From: Rhodospirillales bacterium
GTDB taxonomy: Bacteria; Pseudomonadota; Alphaproteobacteria; Rhodospirillales; SHVU01
Length of the DNA: 64,000 nt
Assembly (NCBI GenBank): GCA_009691105.1
Contig: SHVU01000006.1
Location: 1,629-65,628 of the forward strand
Direction: 5' to 3'
Part shown: positions 912 through 38,365 of the stretch, one piece after another
How the letters are laid out: every line of letters begins with the position of its first letter
How positions within the stretch are numbered: the stretch's first letter is position 1
Translations under genes and position numbers: made by a program
Notes under the pieces: generated by a model
Told to the model about the DNA's origin: nothing
Database searches by the model: none
Seen by the model: only the letters and a program-made list of their open reading frames with translations

Positions 912-1651
912 CGCCGGTTGGGACCTTCGCGCGACGAGGCCAGGCCGCGTTCGGCCTCGGTCAAACCATCCGGCGTTCCGACGTGGAACCACTCGCCATC
1001 GTGGACAAGACCGTAGAGACGGCCGGACTCGATGGCGCGGTCATAGAGGAGGTTGAGCGAGAACACGCCGGCGGGTGCGCCGTCGAACAGCCGCTGGCTC
1101 AAGATCTGCACGCCGGTAAAGACGAAGGGCGAGACCTGCACCTTGGGCCGCCGCCGAAGCCGGCCGAGGCCGTCGGCCAGGAAATCGCCGGGACCGTCGT
1201 AGCCGTGGCTCGTCACCGTTGGAGCGAGGAGAAGCAATCCGTCCATCCCATCGGGATCGAAGCTTCGCGCCAGTCGGTTCAGCGCCGGCTCCGGCCCGTC
1301 CAGCCACACGGAATCGACGTTGGCGACGTAGAAGGGCGCTTTGCCCAGATGCGGCAAGGCTTTGGCGACTCCGCCGCCGGTATCGAGAATCTGCGGTTCC
1401 GGAGAAATCACGATGCTCGGCTTTTGCCGCGTCGTCAGGTGACGCTCGACGAGGCCGGCCAGGTAATGCGTGTTGACGACGGCGGTGTCGACGCCGGCCT
1501 GGTCGAGGCGATCGAGGACGCGGTCGAGCAGCGTCCGTCCCGAGACGAGGACGAGCGGTTTCGGCCGCGACACCGTCAACGGCCTCATGCGAAGTCCGAG
1601 GCCGGCGGCGAGCACCATGGCCCGGGGCGGTGTTGTTCGGGTCTTACTCAT
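908..1651 (-). CDS. murU: nucleotidyltransferase family protein, MurU-like (N-acetylmuramate-1-phosphate uridylyltransferase)
   Basis: 247 aa. N-terminal AMVLAAGLGLRMRPLT sugar-nucleotidyltransferase motif. ATGA-coupled to the upstream kinase gene. Confidence 0.85.
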   Translation of the reverse strand: MSKTRTTPPRAMVLAAGLGLRMRPLTVSRPKPLVLVSGRTLLDRVLDRLDQAGVDTAVVNTHYLAGLVERHLTTRQKPSIVISPEPQILDTGGGVAKALPHLGKAPFYVANVDSVWLDGPEPALNRLARSFDPDGMDGLLLLAPTVTSHGYDGPGDFLADGLGRLRRRPKVQVSPFVFTGVQILSQRLFDGAPAGVFSLNLLYDRAIESGRLYGLVHDGEWFHVGTPDGLTEAERGLASSREGPNRR

Positions 1652-2676
1652 GGGCGGGCCTCAGTGGTCGGAATGCGTCGCGTGTCCGGCGGCAGGTAGC
1701 GATCAAGCCACGCGGCGACGGGGTGGAGAAGAGGATGTCGCACGGCGCGCTCGAGAAGTCGCCAGACGCGCGGGATGTGAACGAGATAGTCGGGCTTGCG
1801 GTCCAGCCGGCACAGCCGCGTGAAGATGCCGATGACTTTGGCGTGGCGTTGGGCGGCCAGGATCGCGTAGCTCGCCTCGAAGCTGTCGCGGTCCGAGGCC
1901 GGCACGGCGGCGCGGTAGCGGGCCCGCATACGCGCGGCGAGATCGGGCGCGATATCGCGGCGTGCATCTTCAAGGAGCGACATGAGATCGTAGGCTCCGG
2001 GTCCAGAGACCGCGTCCTGAAAGTCGAGAAGGCCGACTTTAGCGACGCCGCGCCGTTCCGGAAGCCACATCAGGTTGTCGACGTGGTAGTCGCGAAGAAC
2101 CAGCGTCTTCGGTTCGGCGGCCAGCGCCGCAAAGGCCGGTCGCCAGGCGTTGCGGTAGGCGGCGCGAGCCTCGGCGGTCAGCGGGGTTTCGAGCGCGGCC
2201 GCTCCGTACCATTCGGGCAGGAGGTCGGCTTCGGTGCCGAGCTTTGCGTCGTCGTAAGGCGCGAGCCGGAGCGGCACAGCCCGTTCCGGCGGCAGGCCAT
2301 GGAGCGCCGCGAGGACATCGACGGCGCCGGCATACAACGTCTCTTCGTCCTCGCGCGAAGCCCCGACAAGTTTGCGCGTAAACGTCGCGTCGCCGAGATC
2401 TTCGAGCAGAAGGAATCCTTGCGCGACGTCTTCGGCTTCGATGCGTGGCGCGCTGAAGCCGAGCGCGTCGAGATGGCGAGCGATGGCAGTGAACGGGCGC
2501 ACATCTTCCTTGCCCGGCGGCGCATCCATGAGGACGGCGCGTTTGCCGTTGCGGTCGATGCGGTGATAGCGCCGGAAGGACGCATCGCCGGCCAAGGGCC
2601 GGCGCGTCGCGCCGGTCCATCCGGCGGCGTCCAAGAATGCCGCGATGGCGATGTTGCGGGCGGTCGGTTCAGCCAC
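1648..2676 (-). CDS. amgK: aminoglycoside phosphotransferase-fold kinase, AmgK-like (MurNAc/GlcNAc anomeric kinase)
   Basis: LAGDASFRRYHRI and DYHVDNLMWL kinase motifs. The longest ORF starts at 2730 (62 nt overlap with tsaE). GTG at 2676 gives a short overlap and is preferred; the start is uncertain. Confidence 0.8.
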   Translation of the reverse strand: MAEPTARNIAIAAFLDAAGWTGATRRPLAGDASFRRYHRIDRNGKRAVLMDAPPGKEDVRPFTAIARHLDALGFSAPRIEAEDVAQGFLLLEDLGDATFTRKLVGASREDEETLYAGAVDVLAALHGLPPERAVPLRLAPYDDAKLGTEADLLPEWYGAAALETPLTAEARAAYRNAWRPAFAALAAEPKTLVLRDYHVDNLMWLPERRGVAKVGLLDFQDAVSGPGAYDLMSLLEDARRDIAPDLAARMRARYRAAVPASDRDSFEASYAILAAQRHAKVIGIFTRLCRLDRKPDYLVHIPRVWRLLERAVRHPLLHPVAAWLDRYLPPDTRRIPTTEARP

Positions 2677-3166
2677 GGCGGGCCTCTGCGAAAGCAGTGG
2701 CAAGGCGGTCGCGCCATCGGCCGCGGCCAATCAGGCGAACGCGCCGCGTGTCGGGCTTGGGGCCTTGTGCGATCGTAATTTCCAGGCGATCGGCGGGCCA
2801 GTCGCCGGCCAGCCGTTCCGGCCACTCGATCAGGGAAATTCCTTCGGCGAAGGCGTCCTCCAGCCCGATCTCGCGGGCCGCGTCCGGCCGCTCGATGCGA
2901 AACAGATCGAAATGGTAAATCCGCCCCACGGCAAGATCGTAGGTCTGGATCAAGGTGAACGTCGGGCTCGGCACTTCTTCGTCGGCCGAGCCGCCGGCAC
3001 GGATGAAGGCCCGGGCGAATGCGGTCTTGCCGGCGCCGAGAGCGCCGGAGAGGCCAATGACATCGGGAACCTGAACGAGACCGGCGATCCGTCCCGCCAG
3101 CGTTGCTGTCGCCGCCTCGTTGGCGAGATCGAGCTCGATCACTGTCGTGTTGGGGTTCGCGTCCAT
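2669..3166 (-). CDS. tsaE: tRNA t6A37 threonylcarbamoyl-adenosine biosynthesis protein TsaE
   Basis: 165 aa. P-loop GALGAGKTAFARAF followed by SPTFTLIQ.Y, a typical TsaE/YjeE pattern. Confidence 0.9.
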   Translation of the reverse strand: MDANPNTTVIELDLANEAATATLAGRIAGLVQVPDVIGLSGALGAGKTAFARAFIRAGGSADEEVPSPTFTLIQTYDLAVGRIYHFDLFRIERPDAAREIGLEDAFAEGISLIEWPERLAGDWPADRLEITIAQGPKPDTRRVRLIGRGRWRDRLATAFAEARRG

Positions 3167-3176
3167 CAGCAGTCGC

Positions 3177-5423
3177 CTAGGCTGCCGGCTCGAGGGGAAG
3201 GCGGGCCGTCACCGTCGTGCCTTTAGCGGCCGAAGATGTCACATCGACTTCGCCGCCATGAAGCTCGACGAACCGTTTGACCAGAGCCAGACCAAACGAC
3301 GCCGCCTCGCCGGGGTCGGTGACGCGGCCGGGGACGGCGGGCTGGAACAGCCGTTCGCGCTCGGCCGCCGAAATGGGGCGGCCACCGTCGGTGATCGCGA
3401 AACTGAGATGCGTCGCCTCACGCCGGGCGCCGATCCGGATCGTGCCGCGCGCCGGACTACGGAGGATTGCATTGCCAAGCAGGTTGGACAGAATTTGCCG
3501 AAGCCGCGCCGGATCCGCCGTGATCGGACCGATATCACGCGGGCAATCGAGTTCGATCTTCAGCGTCTTTCCGGCGTCGCGATCGCGAGCCGTTCCCAGG
3601 ATCGCGGCGAGAGTCGCGTGAACGTCGACGGGCGTGGCCTCGATCCCATTCGCGTCTGCCTCGATCAAGGCGAGATCCAGAACGTCTCCGACGACGGTGA
3701 GCAGCGCGCGCGCCGCCGTGAGGATTCCCTCGGCGTAATCTTTCTGGCGCGGATTGAGCGCCCCAAAATGTTCGCCGGAGAGGAACTCCGAAAATCCGAG
3801 GATCGTGGTGATCGGGGTGCGGGCCTGGAACGACAGGTTGGCGATGAACTCGGCGTTCAGGCGATTGGCGGTGGCGAGGGCTTCGGCCCGCTCACGCAGC
3901 GCCGCCTCGATTGTCGCCGGATCGGTGACGTCGAGATAACTGGTCAACATCGCGGAATCGGGAAGGGGAACGTTGGCGTAATCGAGGATGCGGCCGTCGC
4001 CGCGCCGGATGCGTCCCGAGGTCGTGTCGCGACCGAGAAGCTCACCGAGCATTCGTTCGCGCTCGCTGTCCCAATCGGCGACGTCTGTCATGAAGGGCCG
4101 CATCCGCTCGACGACATCGCGGACATGGGGCGCGGCGTGGATTTCATCAGAATGCAACTGCCAGAGCTCGGCGAAGGCCGGATTGCACAGCCGCATCCGT
4201 CCGTCGCTTCCGAAAACGGCGATGGCCTCATACAGATGATCGAGGGTTTCTTTCTGCACGGCGGCGAGAGTCTTGAGCGAGCGTTCGAGGGCGAGGGCTT
4301 GGGTCACATCCTCGTCGCTGGCCAGCGCGCCGCCAGCATGGGGGACGACGACACGGCGCACCGTGGTGCCATCGGGAAGGTGTAGCAGCATCTCGCGCCG
4401 GGCCGGTGGTTGGCGGTATGCGACGATCTCGGCTTCCCGAAACGCCCGGTAGTTGGGTTGCTCGGGGTATCGCCGCTGTGCGCTGAGACGATCGAGGATT
4501 TCGCCGACGTCGGGCCGCGCCATCAGCCAACGCGCATCGAGGCGCCACAAGGTTGCGAAGGCCGGGTTCGCATACACAAGCCGCGCCGCGGCGTCGAAGA
4601 TCGCAATGCCCGTCGTCAGATTGTCGAGGGCTTGATAGGCCGTGGCCGGAGGCGGCGGGGCTCGGTCGTCGGTTCGGCTGGAGGTTTCGACGGCATACCC
4701 GAGGAAGCCGCCGTTTCCCGGAAGCGGCGCTTCGGTGACATCGACGATGCGGCGTCCGCCAGCCGGAAAGGCGAAGCGCTCGCTGGCCGGGCCATTCCGG
4801 ACCGAGGCGCTGGCGGCAAGCGCTTTGACCGCGGTCGATTCGGCGAGACCCTCTGCCGCCGGACTTGCCGCGACAAGTTCGAGATCGGGGCCGCGCAGCC
4901 ACGCCGGAATCGGCATCGTGGCGATCAGGGCTGAAATTGCGTCGTGAGCGATTTGTTCGCTGTTATCCGGTGCGGTGTGGCGGGCCCGCATCCACACAAG
5001 ATCGGCGGCATCGCCACGCCGTCCGTAAGCGTCGATGCGTCGACCCGATCCGGCGAGTTCGAGATCGATCTCGAAGGACTCTCCCTGGCTCCGCAAACGA
5101 TCGACGGCACGGGCGAGGCCGGCTCGCGACGTCTCGGCGAACCGCCCCAACACATCGGCGAATCGGGCTTCGGTGCCGTCGGTGAGACCGAGCAGGACCG
5201 CCAAACGGCGGGAACTGCGCCCGGCATTGGTCCGGCGATCCCACAGGAAGAAACCGTCGGGAGCCGTGGCGAGCGCGTCACCGGCGCGGATTGCTTCAGT
5301 CTGGTGTTCGGCGGCCGCGTCGGTCGCCGCTTTCAGGCGCGTTTCTTGCCGCCGTAGGAGAACGGCCGCGATGGCACCGGCCAAGCCGACGCCGATCAGG
5401 AACGAGACGACGACATCCATCAA
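3177..5423 (-). CDS. membrane-anchored multi-PAS sensor histidine kinase
   Basis: 748 aa. N-terminal TM helix, PAS-like repeats, HisKA-like region (FIANLSFQARTPITTILGFSEFL) and a C-terminal HATPase_c region (GLALVKRFVELHGG). Confidence 0.9.
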   Translation of the reverse strand: MMDVVVSFLIGVGLAGAIAAVLLRRQETRLKAATDAAAEHQTEAIRAGDALATAPDGFFLWDRRTNAGRSSRRLAVLLGLTDGTEARFADVLGRFAETSRAGLARAVDRLRSQGESFEIDLELAGSGRRIDAYGRRGDAADLVWMRARHTAPDNSEQIAHDAISALIATMPIPAWLRGPDLELVAASPAAEGLAESTAVKALAASASVRNGPASERFAFPAGGRRIVDVTEAPLPGNGGFLGYAVETSSRTDDRAPPPPATAYQALDNLTTGIAIFDAAARLVYANPAFATLWRLDARWLMARPDVGEILDRLSAQRRYPEQPNYRAFREAEIVAYRQPPARREMLLHLPDGTTVRRVVVPHAGGALASDEDVTQALALERSLKTLAAVQKETLDHLYEAIAVFGSDGRMRLCNPAFAELWQLHSDEIHAAPHVRDVVERMRPFMTDVADWDSERERMLGELLGRDTTSGRIRRGDGRILDYANVPLPDSAMLTSYLDVTDPATIEAALRERAEALATANRLNAEFIANLSFQARTPITTILGFSEFLSGEHFGALNPRQKDYAEGILTAARALLTVVGDVLDLALIEADANGIEATPVDVHATLAAILGTARDRDAGKTLKIELDCPRDIGPITADPARLRQILSNLLGNAILRSPARGTIRIGARREATHLSFAITDGGRPISAAERERLFQPAVPGRVTDPGEAASFGLALVKRFVELHGGEVDVTSSAAKGTTVTARLPLEPAA

Positions 5424-10280: not shown

Positions 10281-11009
10281 CTAGGCCTCGCGGTAGCGAT
10301 AACCGATGCCATAGAGAGTCTCGATTTCGCCGAAGTCGGTATCGATGTCCTTGAACTTCTTGCGCAACCGTTTGACGTGGCTGTCGATGGTGCGGTCGTC
10401 GACGTAGATCTGCTCGCCATAAGCCGCATCGATCAACTGGTCGCGATTTTTGACGTGGCCAGGCCGTTGGGCGAGGGCCTGCAGAAGCAGAAACTCGGTG
10501 ACCGTGAGATCGACCTTTTGACCACGCCACGTGCAGAGATACCGCGAAAGATCGAGTATCAGTTCGCCGCGATGGATCGCGTCCTTGGGCTCGACGGCGC
10601 CATCGGTCACCTTGGCCAAGTCGTGGCGGCGGAGGACGGCGCGGACGCGCTCGATGAGCAGGCGCTGGGAGAACGGCTTCCGGATGTAATCGTCGGCGCC
10701 CATGCGGAGGCCCAACATCTCGTCGATCTCGTCGTCCTTGGACGTGAGAAAGATGACCGGCATCTTCGACTTTTGACGGAGCCGGTTCAGAAGCTCCATC
10801 CCGTCTAGGCGCGGCATCTTGATGTCGAGGATGGCCAGGTCGACCGGTTGGCGAGTGAGACCGTCGAGGGCCTCGGCCCCGTCCTTGTAGGTCCGCACTT
10901 TGAAGCCCTCGGCCTCAAGAGCCAGGGACACCGAGGCGAGGATGTTGCGATCGTCATCGACGAGCGCGATGGTGCGGTTCATGAGCAGCGTTTCCGATTC
11001 TGTCGACAT
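10281..11009 (-). CDS. chvI: ChvI-type OmpR-family response regulator
   Basis: [24 protein letters not shown]...[13 protein letters not shown] closely resembles rhizobial ChvI, with a winged-helix C-terminus. Candidate starts at 10982, 11009 and 11057. Confidence 0.9.
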
Positions 11010-11298: not shown

Positions 11299-12981
11299 GT
11301 GCCCGAAGTCGACGCCATACACTATTTCCGCGAGATCATCGTCTTCCTTCTCGCCTCCGTGGTCATTGTGCCGGTGTTCCAGCGGCTCAAGATCACCCCG
11401 GTGCTGGGCTATCTCGCGGCCGGGGCGGCGATCGGTCCGCACGGCCTGGGGCTTATGGACGATACCGAAGGCGTGCGAACGCTCGCCGACTTAGTCGTCG
11501 TCTTTTTGTTGTTCACCATCGGCCTCGATCTCACGTTCGAACGCTTGGCCGCGATGCGACGGCTGGTCTTCGGTCTCGGCTTTACCCAAGTCGTCTTCAC
11601 GGGCACCGCCATCGGTCTGATTGCCTGGCTCTGGGGCAACGGGCCGGAGGTGTCGATCGTTCTCGGCGCGTCGCTGGCGCTGTCGTCGACCGCGGTCGTG
11701 CCGATCCTCTTCGTCGTCCATGCCTTTGGGCGGGCCAGTGATGGGATCGAGCTCTCCGATCTCTTTCGCGCCACCGCGATCGCGGTTGTGTCCGTCGGAG
11801 CGATCTTCGTCTTCGGGCGGTTGTTTCTTCGTCCGCTCTTCCGGCTGGTCTCGGAGACGCACAGTCCCGAGCTGTTCACCGCCATGATTTTGCTCGCGGT
11901 TCTTTTGACGGCGAAAGTTACGGACTCGGCGGGGCTGTCGATGGCGCTCGGCGCTTTCATGGCCGGCCTGCTGTTGGCCGAAACCGAATTTCGCCACCAG
12001 GTCGAGTCGGACATTCTGCCGTTCAAAGGCCTGCTGCTCGGTCTCTTCTTTTTGTCCGTGGGCATGGGCATCGACTTCAACCTCGTCATCGGGGACGCGG
12101 CGTGGCTGAGCGTCGCCATCGTCGGCCTCATTCTTCTCAAAGTGGTGATCGCCGGCGGTCTTCTTCTGGCGTTTCATGTTCCCAAAGCCATCGCCGTGGA
12201 ATCGGCGTTGCCGCTCGGCGAAGGCGGAGAGTTCGCCTTCGTCGCGATCGGTGCGGCCATGGCGTTTGGCGTCATGCCAGAAACCGTTGGGCAGTTCATG
12301 TTAGTGGTCGCGGCGTTGTCTCTGGCATTGACGCCGGTGCTCGCGGCCTTGGGCCGGCGTCTGTCCGCTGCTGTCGAAACCAGCGAGGTGGGTCCCTTGT
12401 CGGACACCGGTCCGGTAGAGATCCGCGATCTCGAAAATCACGTCGTAGTTGCCGGCTTTGGTCGCGTCGGACGCCGGGTGGCGCGCATTCTCGACGCGCA
12501 CAAGGGCGCCTACATCTCGATCGATCGTAGCGCCAGCGTCGTCGAGGAATATCGGAAGAGGGGCGTGCCGATCACATTCGGCGATGCAAGCCGCGGAGAA
12601 ATCCTGACGCTTCTCGGCGTCGGCCGGGCCGCCGCGGTGATCGTGACCTTGGACGATCCGGCGGAATCGAGTCGCACCGTCGGGGCCCTCAAGAAAGTGT
12701 GGCCGACGCTGAAGATCTTTGCCCGCGCCAAAGACTCCGTGCATGCCGCGTCCTTGGTTCAAAGCGGCGTCGATGTCGTCGTTCCAGAAGCCATCGAGTC
12801 CAGCCTGCAGTTGGCCCGTCAGGCTCTCCGCGCCTTGGTCGCGCCCGAAGATACGGCGAGCGAACTGGTCAATCGCTATCGCGAGCGGGAATATCGCGAG
12901 TTCCGCTCGCCGGCCGCCGTCGTCGTGGCATCGACTCTGGTTCGGGACGGAAGCGATCCCGGCCGCGAAGTCGGCGGGTAG
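11299..12981 (+). CDS. CPA2 family K+/H+ antiporter, KefB/KefC-like with C-terminal RCK/TrkA-N domain; carries a 30-codon in-frame deletion (see findings)
   Basis: 560 aa. PVLGYLAAGAAIGPHGLG, GLSMALGAFMAGLLLAETEFRH..E.DILPFKGLLLGLFF and Rossmann VVVAGFGRVGRRVA. The segment between SSTA and PILFVV that normally holds the LLFQD motif is missing. Confidence 0.85.
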   Translation: MPEVDAIHYFREIIVFLLASVVIVPVFQRLKITPVLGYLAAGAAIGPHGLGLMDDTEGVRTLADLVVVFLLFTIGLDLTFERLAAMRRLVFGLGFTQVVFTGTAIGLIAWLWGNGPEVSIVLGASLALSSTAVVPILFVVHAFGRASDGIELSDLFRATAIAVVSVGAIFVFGRLFLRPLFRLVSETHSPELFTAMILLAVLLTAKVTDSAGLSMALGAFMAGLLLAETEFRHQVESDILPFKGLLLGLFFLSVGMGIDFNLVIGDAAWLSVAIVGLILLKVVIAGGLLLAFHVPKAIAVESALPLGEGGEFAFVAIGAAMAFGVMPETVGQFMLVVAALSLALTPVLAALGRRLSAAVETSEVGPLSDTGPVEIRDLENHVVVAGFGRVGRRVARILDAHKGAYISIDRSASVVEEYRKRGVPITFGDASRGEILTLLGVGRAAAVIVTLDDPAESSRTVGALKKVWPTLKIFARAKDSVHAASLVQSGVDVVVPEAIESSLQLARQALRALVAPEDTASELVNRYREREYREFRSPAAVVVASTLVRDGSDPGREVGG

Positions 12982-12989
12982 CGGACATC

Positions 12990-13754
12990 GTGTCCCGGCC
13001 GGCGGACGAGGCGGCACGCCAGGCGCGAATATTGATGCGCAGCGCGCGAGCCGTGGTGCTGGCGACGGCGCTTCGCGCCACCCGGGGTGATGCCGGCTTT
13101 CCCTACGCGTCGCTTGTCACCGTGGCCTGGGATGTCGACGGCAGTCCGGTGTTCCTGTTCTCGTCTCTCGCCGATCACACCCGTAACCTTGCCAAGGACT
13201 CGCGGGCCTCGCTGTTGGTTGAGGCGGCGCTGGCGCTGCCTCGCCCGGAGACCGGTCCGCGGATTTCGCTCCTGGGTCGGATTACCCGCAGCGACGATGA
13301 GCGGCACCGCCGACGCTATCTCGCCCGCCATCCTGACGCGGCCGCCTATGCCGGCTTCGGGGATTTTGCGGTCTACCGGATGCAGTTGGAGCGGGCTCGG
13401 TACGTCGGCGGTTTCGCAAGCGCGAAGTGGCTGGACGGTGCCGACCTGCTCGCGCCTAAGGGCGCCGCGGCGGCCATCGCGGCGTGTGAAACGGACGTCA
13501 TTGCCCATATGAACGCCGATCACGGCGAGGCTCTCGATCTTTACGCCAACGTCCTTTTAGGCCGTGGCGGAAAGGGTTGGCGGATGATCGCCCTGGATCC
13601 GGAAGGGTTGGATCTGGCGCGGCGGGGTCGCTGGGCGCGTCTTTCCTTTCCGTCGTCCGTCGCCACCGCCATGGACTGTCGGAATACGCTTATCGCGCTT
13701 GCAAAAAAGGCCCGTGCTGCACCTGCGAAGACTTCGCGGGCCCGGCGCAATTAA
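12990..13754 (+). CDS. HugZ-like / pyridoxamine 5'-phosphate oxidase-fold protein with DUF2470-type C-terminus
   Basis: ARAVVLATA...GFPYASLV...DGSPVFLFSSLADHTRNL and C-terminal IAHMNADHGEALDLYA. GTG 12990 or ATG 13035 start. The upstream part of ORF 12699 overlaps the kefB-like gene. Confidence 0.8.
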   Translation: MSRPADEAARQARILMRSARAVVLATALRATRGDAGFPYASLVTVAWDVDGSPVFLFSSLADHTRNLAKDSRASLLVEAALALPRPETGPRISLLGRITRSDDERHRRRYLARHPDAAAYAGFGDFAVYRMQLERARYVGGFASAKWLDGADLLAPKGAAAAIAACETDVIAHMNADHGEALDLYANVLLGRGGKGWRMIALDPEGLDLARRGRWARLSFPSSVATAMDCRNTLIALAKKARAAPAKTSRARRN

Positions 13755-37072: not shown

Positions 37073-38365
37073 ATGGATCTCTACGAGCTGATGTCTCGTT
37101 TTGGCGCGGCTCTCGGCGTCGGGCTGGTGTTCGGTCTCGAACGCAGCTGGCAAAACCGCGACGCCGGCCCCGGCACGCGCACCGCCGGTATCCGCACGTT
37201 CACGATCTCGGGCTTGCTGGGCGGCGTTGTCGGCGCCTTGGCCATGGTCAGTGGCGGCCCGATGACTCTCGGTGGCGGACTGATCGTTGGTTTAGGGTTC
37301 GCCGCTTTTGTCGGCACCATGGCTCTCTTTTTCCAGGAGGAGAACCGCGCCGACGAAACGTACTCGGCGACGTCGTTCGTCACCGCGATGCTGACCTTCG
37401 CGCTCGGCGCGTACGCACTGATCGGCGATATCCGAGTCGCGGGGGCGGTCGCGGTTGTCAGCGCCGGCCTTCTCGCGGCCCGGGAAAATCTTCACAGCTG
37501 GATCAAACACCTGACGTGGCCGAAGCTGCGCTCGGCCTTGGTTCTCTTGGCGATGAGCGTTGTCGTCTTGCCGCTTGTCCCAAACGAGGACATCGGACCG
37601 TTCGGCGGGGTCAATCCACGCGAGATCTGGATCATCGCTATCGTCCTCGCCGCCATTTAGTTCTTCGGCTACATCGCGGCGAAATTCTTCGGCGACCGAT
37701 GGGGTCTTCTGGTGGCCGGCGCGGCCGGGGGGCTCGCCTCGTCGACGGCGGTGACTATCGCCAATGCCCGCCAAGCCGTTACGCAAAAGGGTCCGACCTA
37801 TCTTCTGTCGGCCGGGGTAGCTCTGGCGACAGAGGTCAAGTTTCTGCGGATCGGTGGCATCGTTGTTGTCATTAAGCCTGAGCTTCTCATCTTGGTGGCG
37901 GCGGCATTGTTAGCGGCGACCCTGGCTGCGGTTGGTTACGACCTCGTCGCCGCTTTTTGGCTCGGCGCGGGAAGTCGTGCGTCGCAACGGATCAAATTCC
38001 GCAATCCGTTCGATCTTCCGGCGGTCCTCGGCTTTGCCGTGTTGCTCGCCGTCGTCATCGTGATCGGCCGAGTCGTGGGCGAGAGCTTCGGCGGAACAAC
38101 CGCCATTCTCGGCGCTGCGGTCATGGGGGTTGTCGACATCGACGCGACAACCATCGCGACGGCGCGATTGGTGCCGAAGCCGCTGGATGCCTTGACGGCA
38201 AGCTTCGCGATTCTGCTAGCGGTCACGACCGACACGGTGACTAAGATCGCGATCGGTGCGGTTCTCGGTCATGGGCGTTTCGCCGCTGAGATTTAGCTGA
38301 TGGCGCTCGGCTGTTTCATTGCCGGCGGCGCCGCGCTCTGGGCCACCGTGCTCGTGGCGGCTTAG
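37073..38365 (+). pseudogene. MgtC/SapB-family plus DUF4010 membrane protein, interrupted by in-frame TAG at 37658..37660 and probably a second TAG at 38294..38296
   Basis: ORFs 37073..37660 and 37712..38296 share a frame. Reading across gives ...IAIVLAAI*FFGYIAAKFFGDRWGLLVAGAAGGLASSTAVT..., continuous with the DUF4010 consensus (GGLvSSTAvT). After the second TAG the frame continues with a TM-like [22 protein letters not shown]. Total is about 430 codons, the usual family length as I recall it. Confidence 0.8.

Follow-up and report, generated by a model that had tools for sequence, protein, structure and literature searches.

The kef gene considered here lies at positions 11299-12981 of a 64,000-nucleotide (nt) stretch of Rhodospirillales bacterium contig SHVU01000006.1, which we refer to throughout as the window. 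It encodes a K+/H+ exchanger of the KefC/KefB type, in which a membrane domain of the CPA2 family is followed by a C-terminal RCK (KTN) domain. Compared with KefC of Escherichia coli and with its closest homologues, the gene lacks exactly 30 codons, which were removed in frame and which in intact relatives encode an invariant Gln-Asp pair of the ion-binding site. We consider it likely that the gene, otherwise that of an ordinary exchanger, is a loss-of-function allele of recent origin in a decaying genome. As such it would be a cryptic pseudogene: its reading frame is open, both Pfam domains are recognised and the AlphaFold model is confident, so that automated annotation will call an intact CPA2 antiporter.

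Extent of the deletion in the window kef gene

The best solved relative of the 560-residue window protein is E. coli KefC (8bxg/9emb, E=1e-78), which is a glutathione-gated K+/H+ exchanger (PMC11150392). Residues 8-134 of the window protein align to residues 4-130 of KefC, and the alignment resumes with P135 opposite P161 of KefC. Between these ungapped flanks, 30 KefC residues (about 131-160) have no counterpart in the window protein. In a genome-wide Pfam search the match to the Na_H_Exchanger family (PF00999) is broken in two at this place, with profile positions 3-121 and 150-373 matched and positions 122-149 missing.

A search of 5.8 billion protein clusters returned 7999 matches, all of which combine CPA2 and RCK domains. 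When 120 homologues were aligned with MAFFT, the window protein showed a single block of 30 consecutive gapped columns that are filled in more than 90% of the sequences, and a 14-sequence alignment showed the same block. A gap at these columns is found in none of the other sequences of the larger alignment (0/119 homologues). Within the lost block A132, G149, L157, Q159 and D160, numbered as in the intact orthologue P0002 that is described below, are invariant across 117 intact homologues. The parts of the gene on which the argument rests are as follows, all on the + strand.

11299-12981, +: KefC/KefB-like CPA2 K+/H+ exchanger gene with C-terminal RCK (KTN) domain; GTG start, 560 codons, open frame with a 90-nt in-frame deletion
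11644-11691, +: residues 116-131, comprising the retained half-helix of transmembrane helix (TM) 5a and the S-S-T break in the first crossover helix, with the equivalents of KefC S125 and T127 still present
11692-11700, +: deletion junction GCG GTC GTG (GCGGTCGTG), encoding A132-V133-V134; single surviving copy of a short direct repeat
11701-11733, +: retained C-terminal half of TM6 (PILFVVHAFGR), now joined directly to the TM5a break, as seen in the alignment with P0002 and KefC and in the AlphaFold2 model
12205-12252, +: retained second crossover region TM12a-b (ALPLGEGGEFAFVAIG), with E311 (= KefC E337) and the lineage-specific substitution L305P
12442-12783, +: intact RCK/KTN (TrkA_N) nucleotide-binding regulatory domain, residues 382-495, matching positions 1-114 of the 116 in the PF02254 profile

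The deletion had been described in a first-pass annotation made from the DNA alone, and most of what was claimed there agrees with our results. The count of 79 residues between the Ser-Ser-Thr-Ala and GLSMA-type motifs, compared with 109 in KefC, was reproduced in the alignment and in the intact orthologue: 79 residues separate A132 from the next GLSMA-type glycine (G212) in the window protein, and 109 separate the corresponding positions (to G242) in the orthologue. The deletion is precise and in frame as proposed, exactly 30 residues being missing relative to KefC and to the 117 homologues, and it removes the conserved Gln-Asp pair as proposed, since Q159 and D160 are invariant in the intact homologues and both correspond to K+ ligands of KefC. 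The statement that the remainder of the protein is preserved also holds, for the RCK domain as for every other segment. The annotation had also named two observations that would speak against a deletion, namely close orthologues with the same short architecture and an ion-binding motif elsewhere in the protein. We found instead that the closest orthologue is full length and that there is no short subfamily, and the translation of the 560-residue protein, read directly, contains neither a Gln-Asp nor an Asp-Asp dipeptide at any other place.

The label given to the lost segment, TM5, needs to be amended. The segment is indeed gone, but it is not a whole helix; in the 13-TM numbering of KefC the missing part corresponds to TM5b, the following loop and the N-terminal half of TM6. 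The name TM5 for this segment belongs to the 12-TM numbering of NhaA-type exchangers.

Outside the lost segment the protein resembles other members of its family. The Pfam scores of the product are 148 bits for PF00999 (4e-43; cut-off 26.2 bits) and 86 bits for TrkA_N (PF02254; 2.5e-24; residues 382-495). The RCK region matches the C-terminal domains of KefC and of a Shewanella Kef protein, and YbaL, in the PDB. In the AlphaFold2 model it shows the alternation of strands and helices of a Rossmann-like fold with a predicted local distance difference test score (pLDDT) above 90, and this fold matches those of the KefC and YbaL RCK domains. Invariant columns of the alignment include L128, S129, S130 and T131 (118 sequences), K281, and G310, E311 and F312; the TM11 lysine K281 (= KefC K307) and the TM12 glutamate E311 (= E337) are both present in the window protein. 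A separate observation concerns L305P (codon 305, 12211-12213), which is common to the window protein and P0001 and lies four residues before G309-G310 of the TM12 motif. This substitution is unique to the window lineage, in a column that is 86% Leu among homologues.

Origin, distribution and age of the short form

The closest intact orthologue (P0002) has 593 residues and 78% amino acid identity to the window protein, and is encoded at positions 1433-3214 of a locus (L021) on ENA ERZ27280224 contig k141_1590978. The gene order there is the same as in the window (ChvI-like response regulator, kef, PNPOx/DUF2470, GTP-PEPCK), and because of these shared neighbours we regard P0002 as a true orthologue. 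At this site it has a further 30 residues (AVVMQLLIERGEVASRLGRVTFAVLLSQDL) that the window protein lacks, and its gene has a 9-nt repeat in both copies. Specifically, P0002 reads LALSST-AVV-MQLLIERGEVASRLGRVTFAVLLSQDL-AVV-PILFVVHAFG, with 27 residues between the two AVV tripeptides that end in LLSQDL, where the window protein reads LALSST-AVV-PILFVVHAFG. In the L021 DNA (ACG GCG GTC GTC ATG ... TTG GCG GTC GTT CCG) each boundary of the deletion carries a copy of the 9-nt sequence GGCGGTCGT, and the spacing of the two copies is exactly 90 nt. The window keeps one copy of the repeat and lacks the 90 nt. Its junction, CTG TCG TCG ACC GCG GTC GTG CCG, encodes L128, S129, S130, T131, A132 (GCG, 11692-94), V133 (GTC, 11695-97), V134 (GTG, 11698-700) and P135 (CCG, 11701-03), and an identical junction is present in a second locus of the short form (L022). 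P0002 itself reads LLSQD where the family reads LLFQD, so that the aromatic residue directly preceding the ion-binding pair is replaced by Ser.

The earlier guess that positions 11692-11700 are the remnant of a direct repeat is thus upheld by the pair of GGCGGTCGT copies at 90-nt spacing, with the provision that this pair was read in a 78%-identical orthologue and not in the direct ancestor, whose repeat could have been 8-11 nt long. Short direct repeats at both ends of a lost segment, with one copy left behind, are the signature of slipped-strand mispairing, a RecA-independent process whose deletions are classically described for E. coli lacI. We infer that the window deletion arose in this way. 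Two copies of a 9-nt GGCGGTCGT-like repeat, one encoding the A-V-V of SSTAVVMQ and the other the A-V-V of QDLAVVPIL, would have mispaired during replication, with the loss of one copy and of the intervening 81 nt. The 90 nt removed in such an event correspond to 30 codons, and the frame would be kept. Because the event was in frame, no stop codon flags the deletion in kef.

About 9 of 120 intact-form genes listed carry an exact 8-10-nt repeat at 90-nt spacing at this site. The substrate is common because GC-rich genomes encode here a conserved peptide repeat, A-[VI]-V ... A-V-V. This repeat makes Kef genes a built-in substrate for deletion, the product of which has evidently been purged everywhere else that was sampled. 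That the product is unseen elsewhere although its substrate is common is as expected if the short form is normally selected against.

Three proteins make up the exact-sequence cluster to which the window protein belongs, all of 560 residues and all with the same junction. They come from an NCBI metagenome-assembled genome (MAG; the window), a Logan SRR8561390 contig (L022) and an ENA ERZ1305449 contig (P0122). These alleles are at most 0.3% apart and differ at sites away from the junction, with H8P, A404T and S501P in L022 and G212W in P0122 relative to the window.

Beyond this cluster we found only the intact form. The junction pattern A-L-S-S-T-A-[VI]-V-P-x-L gave 0 matches in one genome per species from 185,579 species, among which the window's own genome may not be included, and an equally specific control pattern for the intact form, A-L-S-S-T-A-[VI]-V-x-Q-L, gave at least 120 matches in the same genomes. 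Both patterns assume TCN codons for Ser and CTN codons for Leu, so that AGY and TTR usage is missed. The best of the GTDB relatives is 45% identical to the window protein, and each of the 35 relatives that gave a match is aligned in two parts, one on either side of the gap, and so contains the segment. No intact protein above 78% identity was found among about 15 billion proteins, and a scan of JGI metagenomes for closer relatives returned only matches of 36% identity or less.

The short allele, the only form seen in its lineage, appears to have arisen late on its branch. We compared the window with L021 by the method of Nei and Gojobori and calculated the ratio of nonsynonymous to synonymous substitution rates (dN/dS, where dS is the synonymous rate) for four genes. 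The values were 0.139 for kef (dS 0.95), 0.062 for the response regulator (dS 0.73), 0.172 for PNPOx/DUF2470 (dS 0.78) and 0.081 for PEPCK (dS 0.45). Relative-rate tests with 10 outgroups revealed no acceleration on the window branch (23-30 versus 22-33 unique changes, all p >=0.67; for example, 29 versus 33 changes, p=0.7). On these rates, constraint on kef has been normal over almost the whole time since its lineage separated. Because the lineage shows no rate acceleration, the deletion is probably recent: it would be young relative to the split from L021, and no younger than the common ancestor of the three short alleles.

Within the window lineage a few changes give weak hints that constraint on the gene may have been relaxed after the deletion. 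P0122 carries G212W at an invariant glycine, L022 carries S501P at an invariant or near-invariant residue, and the window has H8 in place of a conserved proline. Between the window and L022, kef differs by three nonsynonymous and no synonymous changes. The window protein has four substitutions (G66V, L221M, A407S and G514V) at columns that are at least 95% conserved, versus one in P0002. Over the whole region shared with L022 (10561-13545) there are nine differences in 2985 nt, and 6 of the 8 in coding sequence are nonsynonymous. Such a replacement-rich pattern is unusual for strains 0.3% apart and could reflect either weak purifying selection or assembly noise.

Predicted consequences for the product and alternative readings

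The effect of the deletion on the product can be considered in the light of the KefC structure. KefC has 13 TMs, with its N-terminus outside and its C-terminus inside, and a 6-TM core in which two of the helices, TM5a-b and TM12a-b, are broken; the ligands of K+ are Q155, D156, T127 and the carbonyls of S125 and L152 (PMC11150392). No K+ density is seen in the D156N variant, whose signal does not exceed that of empty liposomes; binding of K+ is abolished in Q155D and not clearly seen in T127V; and K307 (TM11) and E337 (TM12) neutralise the half-helix dipoles (PMC11150392). In KefC numbering, the window protein has lost TM5b, the cytoplasmic TM5-TM6 loop and about the first half of TM6, and three K+ ligands (the counterparts of L152, Q155 and D156) are gone with them. 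Among ligand and core residues, S129 and T131 (= KefC S125 and T127), K281 (= K307) and E311 (= E337) are left. The acidic ion-binding motif that follows the first crossover (KefC D156, NapA D157) is absent, as it falls within the deleted segment, and of the two crossover helices only TM12a-b is complete, TM5b having been deleted. The product would therefore be expected to keep TM1-TM5a, the C-terminal half of TM6, TM7-TM13 and the RCK domain. The groups that bind K+ (and H+), namely the invariant Gln-Asp pair and a Leu carbonyl, lie in the part that is lost, and by analogy with the KefC mutants K+/H+ antiport should be lost whichever of the two topologies discussed below the protein adopts.

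AlphaFold2 models were built from alignments of 117-118 sequences. For the intact orthologue they show helices at 116-126 (TM5a), 131-140 (TM5b) and 147-175 (TM6), with a predicted template modelling score (pTM) of 0.84; for the window protein they show helices at 116-127 and 130-145 separated by a two-residue break at 128-129, with a pTM of 0.73 and a pLDDT of 88. Kyte-Doolittle analysis likewise gives one hydrophobic stretch of 27 residues (118-144) in the window protein versus two (117-139 and 150-174) in the orthologue. The first-pass annotation had proposed that the loss of one helix would flip the C-terminal half of the protein. One stretch in place of two makes this possible, but it is not required, as a re-entrant hairpin is equally conceivable. 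Insertion of residues 118-144 as a single span would invert the whole of the protein that follows, the RCK domain included. If these residues form an out-mid-out hairpin, the topology would be kept and the core would lack its cytoplasmic half. A hairpin is conceivable because in KefC each of the two retained pieces, TM5a and the C-terminal half of TM6, has one of its ends at the periplasmic face, and out-mid-out is the native direction of both. The short product probably does not fold or insert like its parent.

Several observations weigh against regarding the gene as a recent loss-of-function allele. Its frame is open over 560 codons and is accompanied by promoter-like and ribosome binding site-like signals, which are compatible with the expression of a stable protein. 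The AlphaFold2 model of the short protein is confident and matches the KefC/NapA fold. The four substitutions at conserved sites place the window protein at rank 17 of 120, where it is no outlier, and the 3:0 ratio of nonsynonymous to synonymous changes in kef is not separable from assembly noise or from the background in the neighbouring PNPOx/DUF2470 gene, where the ratio between the window and L022 is 3:2 over 510 nt. Finally, an intact allele could coexist in the population. AlphaFold2 is insensitive to lesions of this type, and the confident model is not taken as evidence that the short protein folds.

Alternatively, the short protein might be kept because it is still of use, as a membrane-anchored RCK sensor of nucleotide or glutathione, as a scaffold or dominant-negative partner, or as a leak or channel-like pathway opened by the loss of half of the core bundle. 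The open frame, the intact RCK domain, the presence of the deletion in all three sampled genomes of the lineage, the confident model and the promoter-like and ribosome binding site-like signals are all in keeping with such a role. We nevertheless regard it as improbable, since alleles no more than 0.3% apart make the deletion too young for the open frame to be informative, no second Kef or CPA protein that it might partner or regulate was found in the genome, the form occurs in no other lineage among the 185,579 species despite the common repeat substrate, and the post-deletion changes G212W and S501P strike invariant residues. A more specific proposal, which we hold to be quite improbable, is that a core-deleted Kef is maintained in a low-ionic-strength deep-lake habitat, where it is selected as a membrane-anchored RCK sensor or as an uncoupled cation leak in which TM5a and the outer half of TM6 form a re-entrant hairpin. 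If this were true, the selective reason would be the cost of electrophile-triggered K+ efflux, and the marine relative P0005 (described below), which has independently lost the other crossover, would point to a recurrent route to a like product.

It is also conceivable that the population mostly carries an intact gene of 590 residues and that the short form is a collapsed assembly or a minor variant, as all of its sources are metagenome assemblies and are possibly not independent samples. A 9-nt repeat, however, is far below the k-mer sizes used by assemblers and cannot collapse a de Bruijn graph at k >=21. As the identical junction was obtained from three pipelines in concordant assemblies that differ at other sites, we rejected assembly collapse, and an artefact or polymorphism is very unlikely, the more so as no intact protein closer than the 78%-identical orthologue came to light among the 15 billion searched. 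We likewise rejected a natural CPA2 subfamily that lacks the segment and binds ions by some other arrangement. The open frame is the one point in its favour, and with a full-length syntenic orthologue, no gap at this site in 119 homologues, no junction in 185,579 genomes and no substitute Gln-Asp or Asp-Asp pair, the chance that it is correct is minute.

If the gene is a recent loss-of-function allele, the biology involved is ordinary and opens no new question. Its value would be as a caveat for annotation and as a very clean natural example of its kind. Metabolic and ion-homeostasis reconstructions of this lineage should not credit the gene with Kef-type K+ efflux.

Genomic setting and comparison with known systems

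The source genome is a 1.88-Mb MAG of 54 contigs that is 85% complete and is the sole representative of its family and genus. Apart from the window kef, the genome-wide Pfam search found no second PF00999, Kef-like or CPA gene in this 85%-complete genome. Other features of the window that bear on the setting of kef are the following.

10281-11009, -: divergent ChvI-like response regulator, a conserved neighbour that supports orthology; 94% amino acid identity and dN/dS 0.062 versus L021
11074-11103, +: promoter-like site TTGACG-18-TATAGT upstream of kef; consensus match only, 10/12, with 1 found versus 0.3 expected
13035-13754, +: PNPOx_N/DUF2470 gene downstream of kef, a conserved neighbour called in L021, L022 and the ERZ1305449 contig; dN/dS 0.172 versus L021
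33676-34335, -: CPBP/Rce1-like protease gene in which TAA takes the place of the first Glu codon of EExxxR; downstream of the stop, positions 20-93 of the 93 in PF02517 are matched
37073-38365, +: MgtC and DUF4010 gene in which an in-frame TAG separates the two domains, with matches to PF02308 before it and to PF13194 (8-210 of 210) after it

The last two genes are interrupted by stop codons, and the loss of Kef fits a picture in which accessory genes of this small genome are still decaying. The MgtC-DUF4010 gene has a second TAG near its end, which is followed by 22 more hydrophobic codons.

Variation at the same site was seen in other Kef genes. In eleven orthologous loci (L032, L033, L036, L037, L042, L071, L077, L096, L104, L147 and L149), those with a name being from Brevundimonas, the otherwise invariant LLFQD is replaced by LLFED, and a Glu-Asp ion-site motif might imply different ion coupling. 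In a further species genome (L134) the Kef frame turns Arg/Pro-rich right after ALSSTAIVMQL, which points to a frameshift within TM5b, the segment also affected in the window, or close to it.

The window protein shares with E. coli KefC (PDB 8BXG, 8BY2 and 9EMB; PMC11150392) a CPA2 membrane domain and a C-terminal RCK/KTN domain, with the same fold in AlphaFold2 models, as well as the S-S-T break of TM5a, the TM11 lysine (K281 = K307) and the G-x-G-x-E-F crossover of TM12 with its glutamate (E311 = E337). It differs in having no counterpart of residues about 131-160, which include L152, Q155 and D156, and in having Gly at the position of S336, as is the case throughout its alphaproteobacterial subfamily.

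A second lesion of the same class was found in a Kef protein encoded on a Tara Oceans scaffold (P0005; L152, positions 390-2072), which has a 63-nt, 21-codon in-frame deletion: PR[GAAVEAGLLLGQAGEFAFVVV]GAAVAVG, with the missing part in brackets. A near-identical intact relative (P0004; L153, positions 501-2246) carries the 9-nt sequence CGGCGCCGC at both boundaries. P0005 and the window protein belong to the same family and carry the same class of slippage lesion, but the event in P0005 is independent and took place in another lineage (58% identity to the window protein), and what it removed is the TM12 crossover (LLGQAGEF, G-x-G-x-E-F) rather than TM5b and TM6. With spontaneous deletions between short repeats, the window deletion has in common its end points in a perfect 9-nt repeat, the retention of one copy and a loss equal to the spacing of the copies. 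We see no mechanistic difference between them; what sets the window deletion apart is that it is in frame and excises the ion-binding core of the exchanger.

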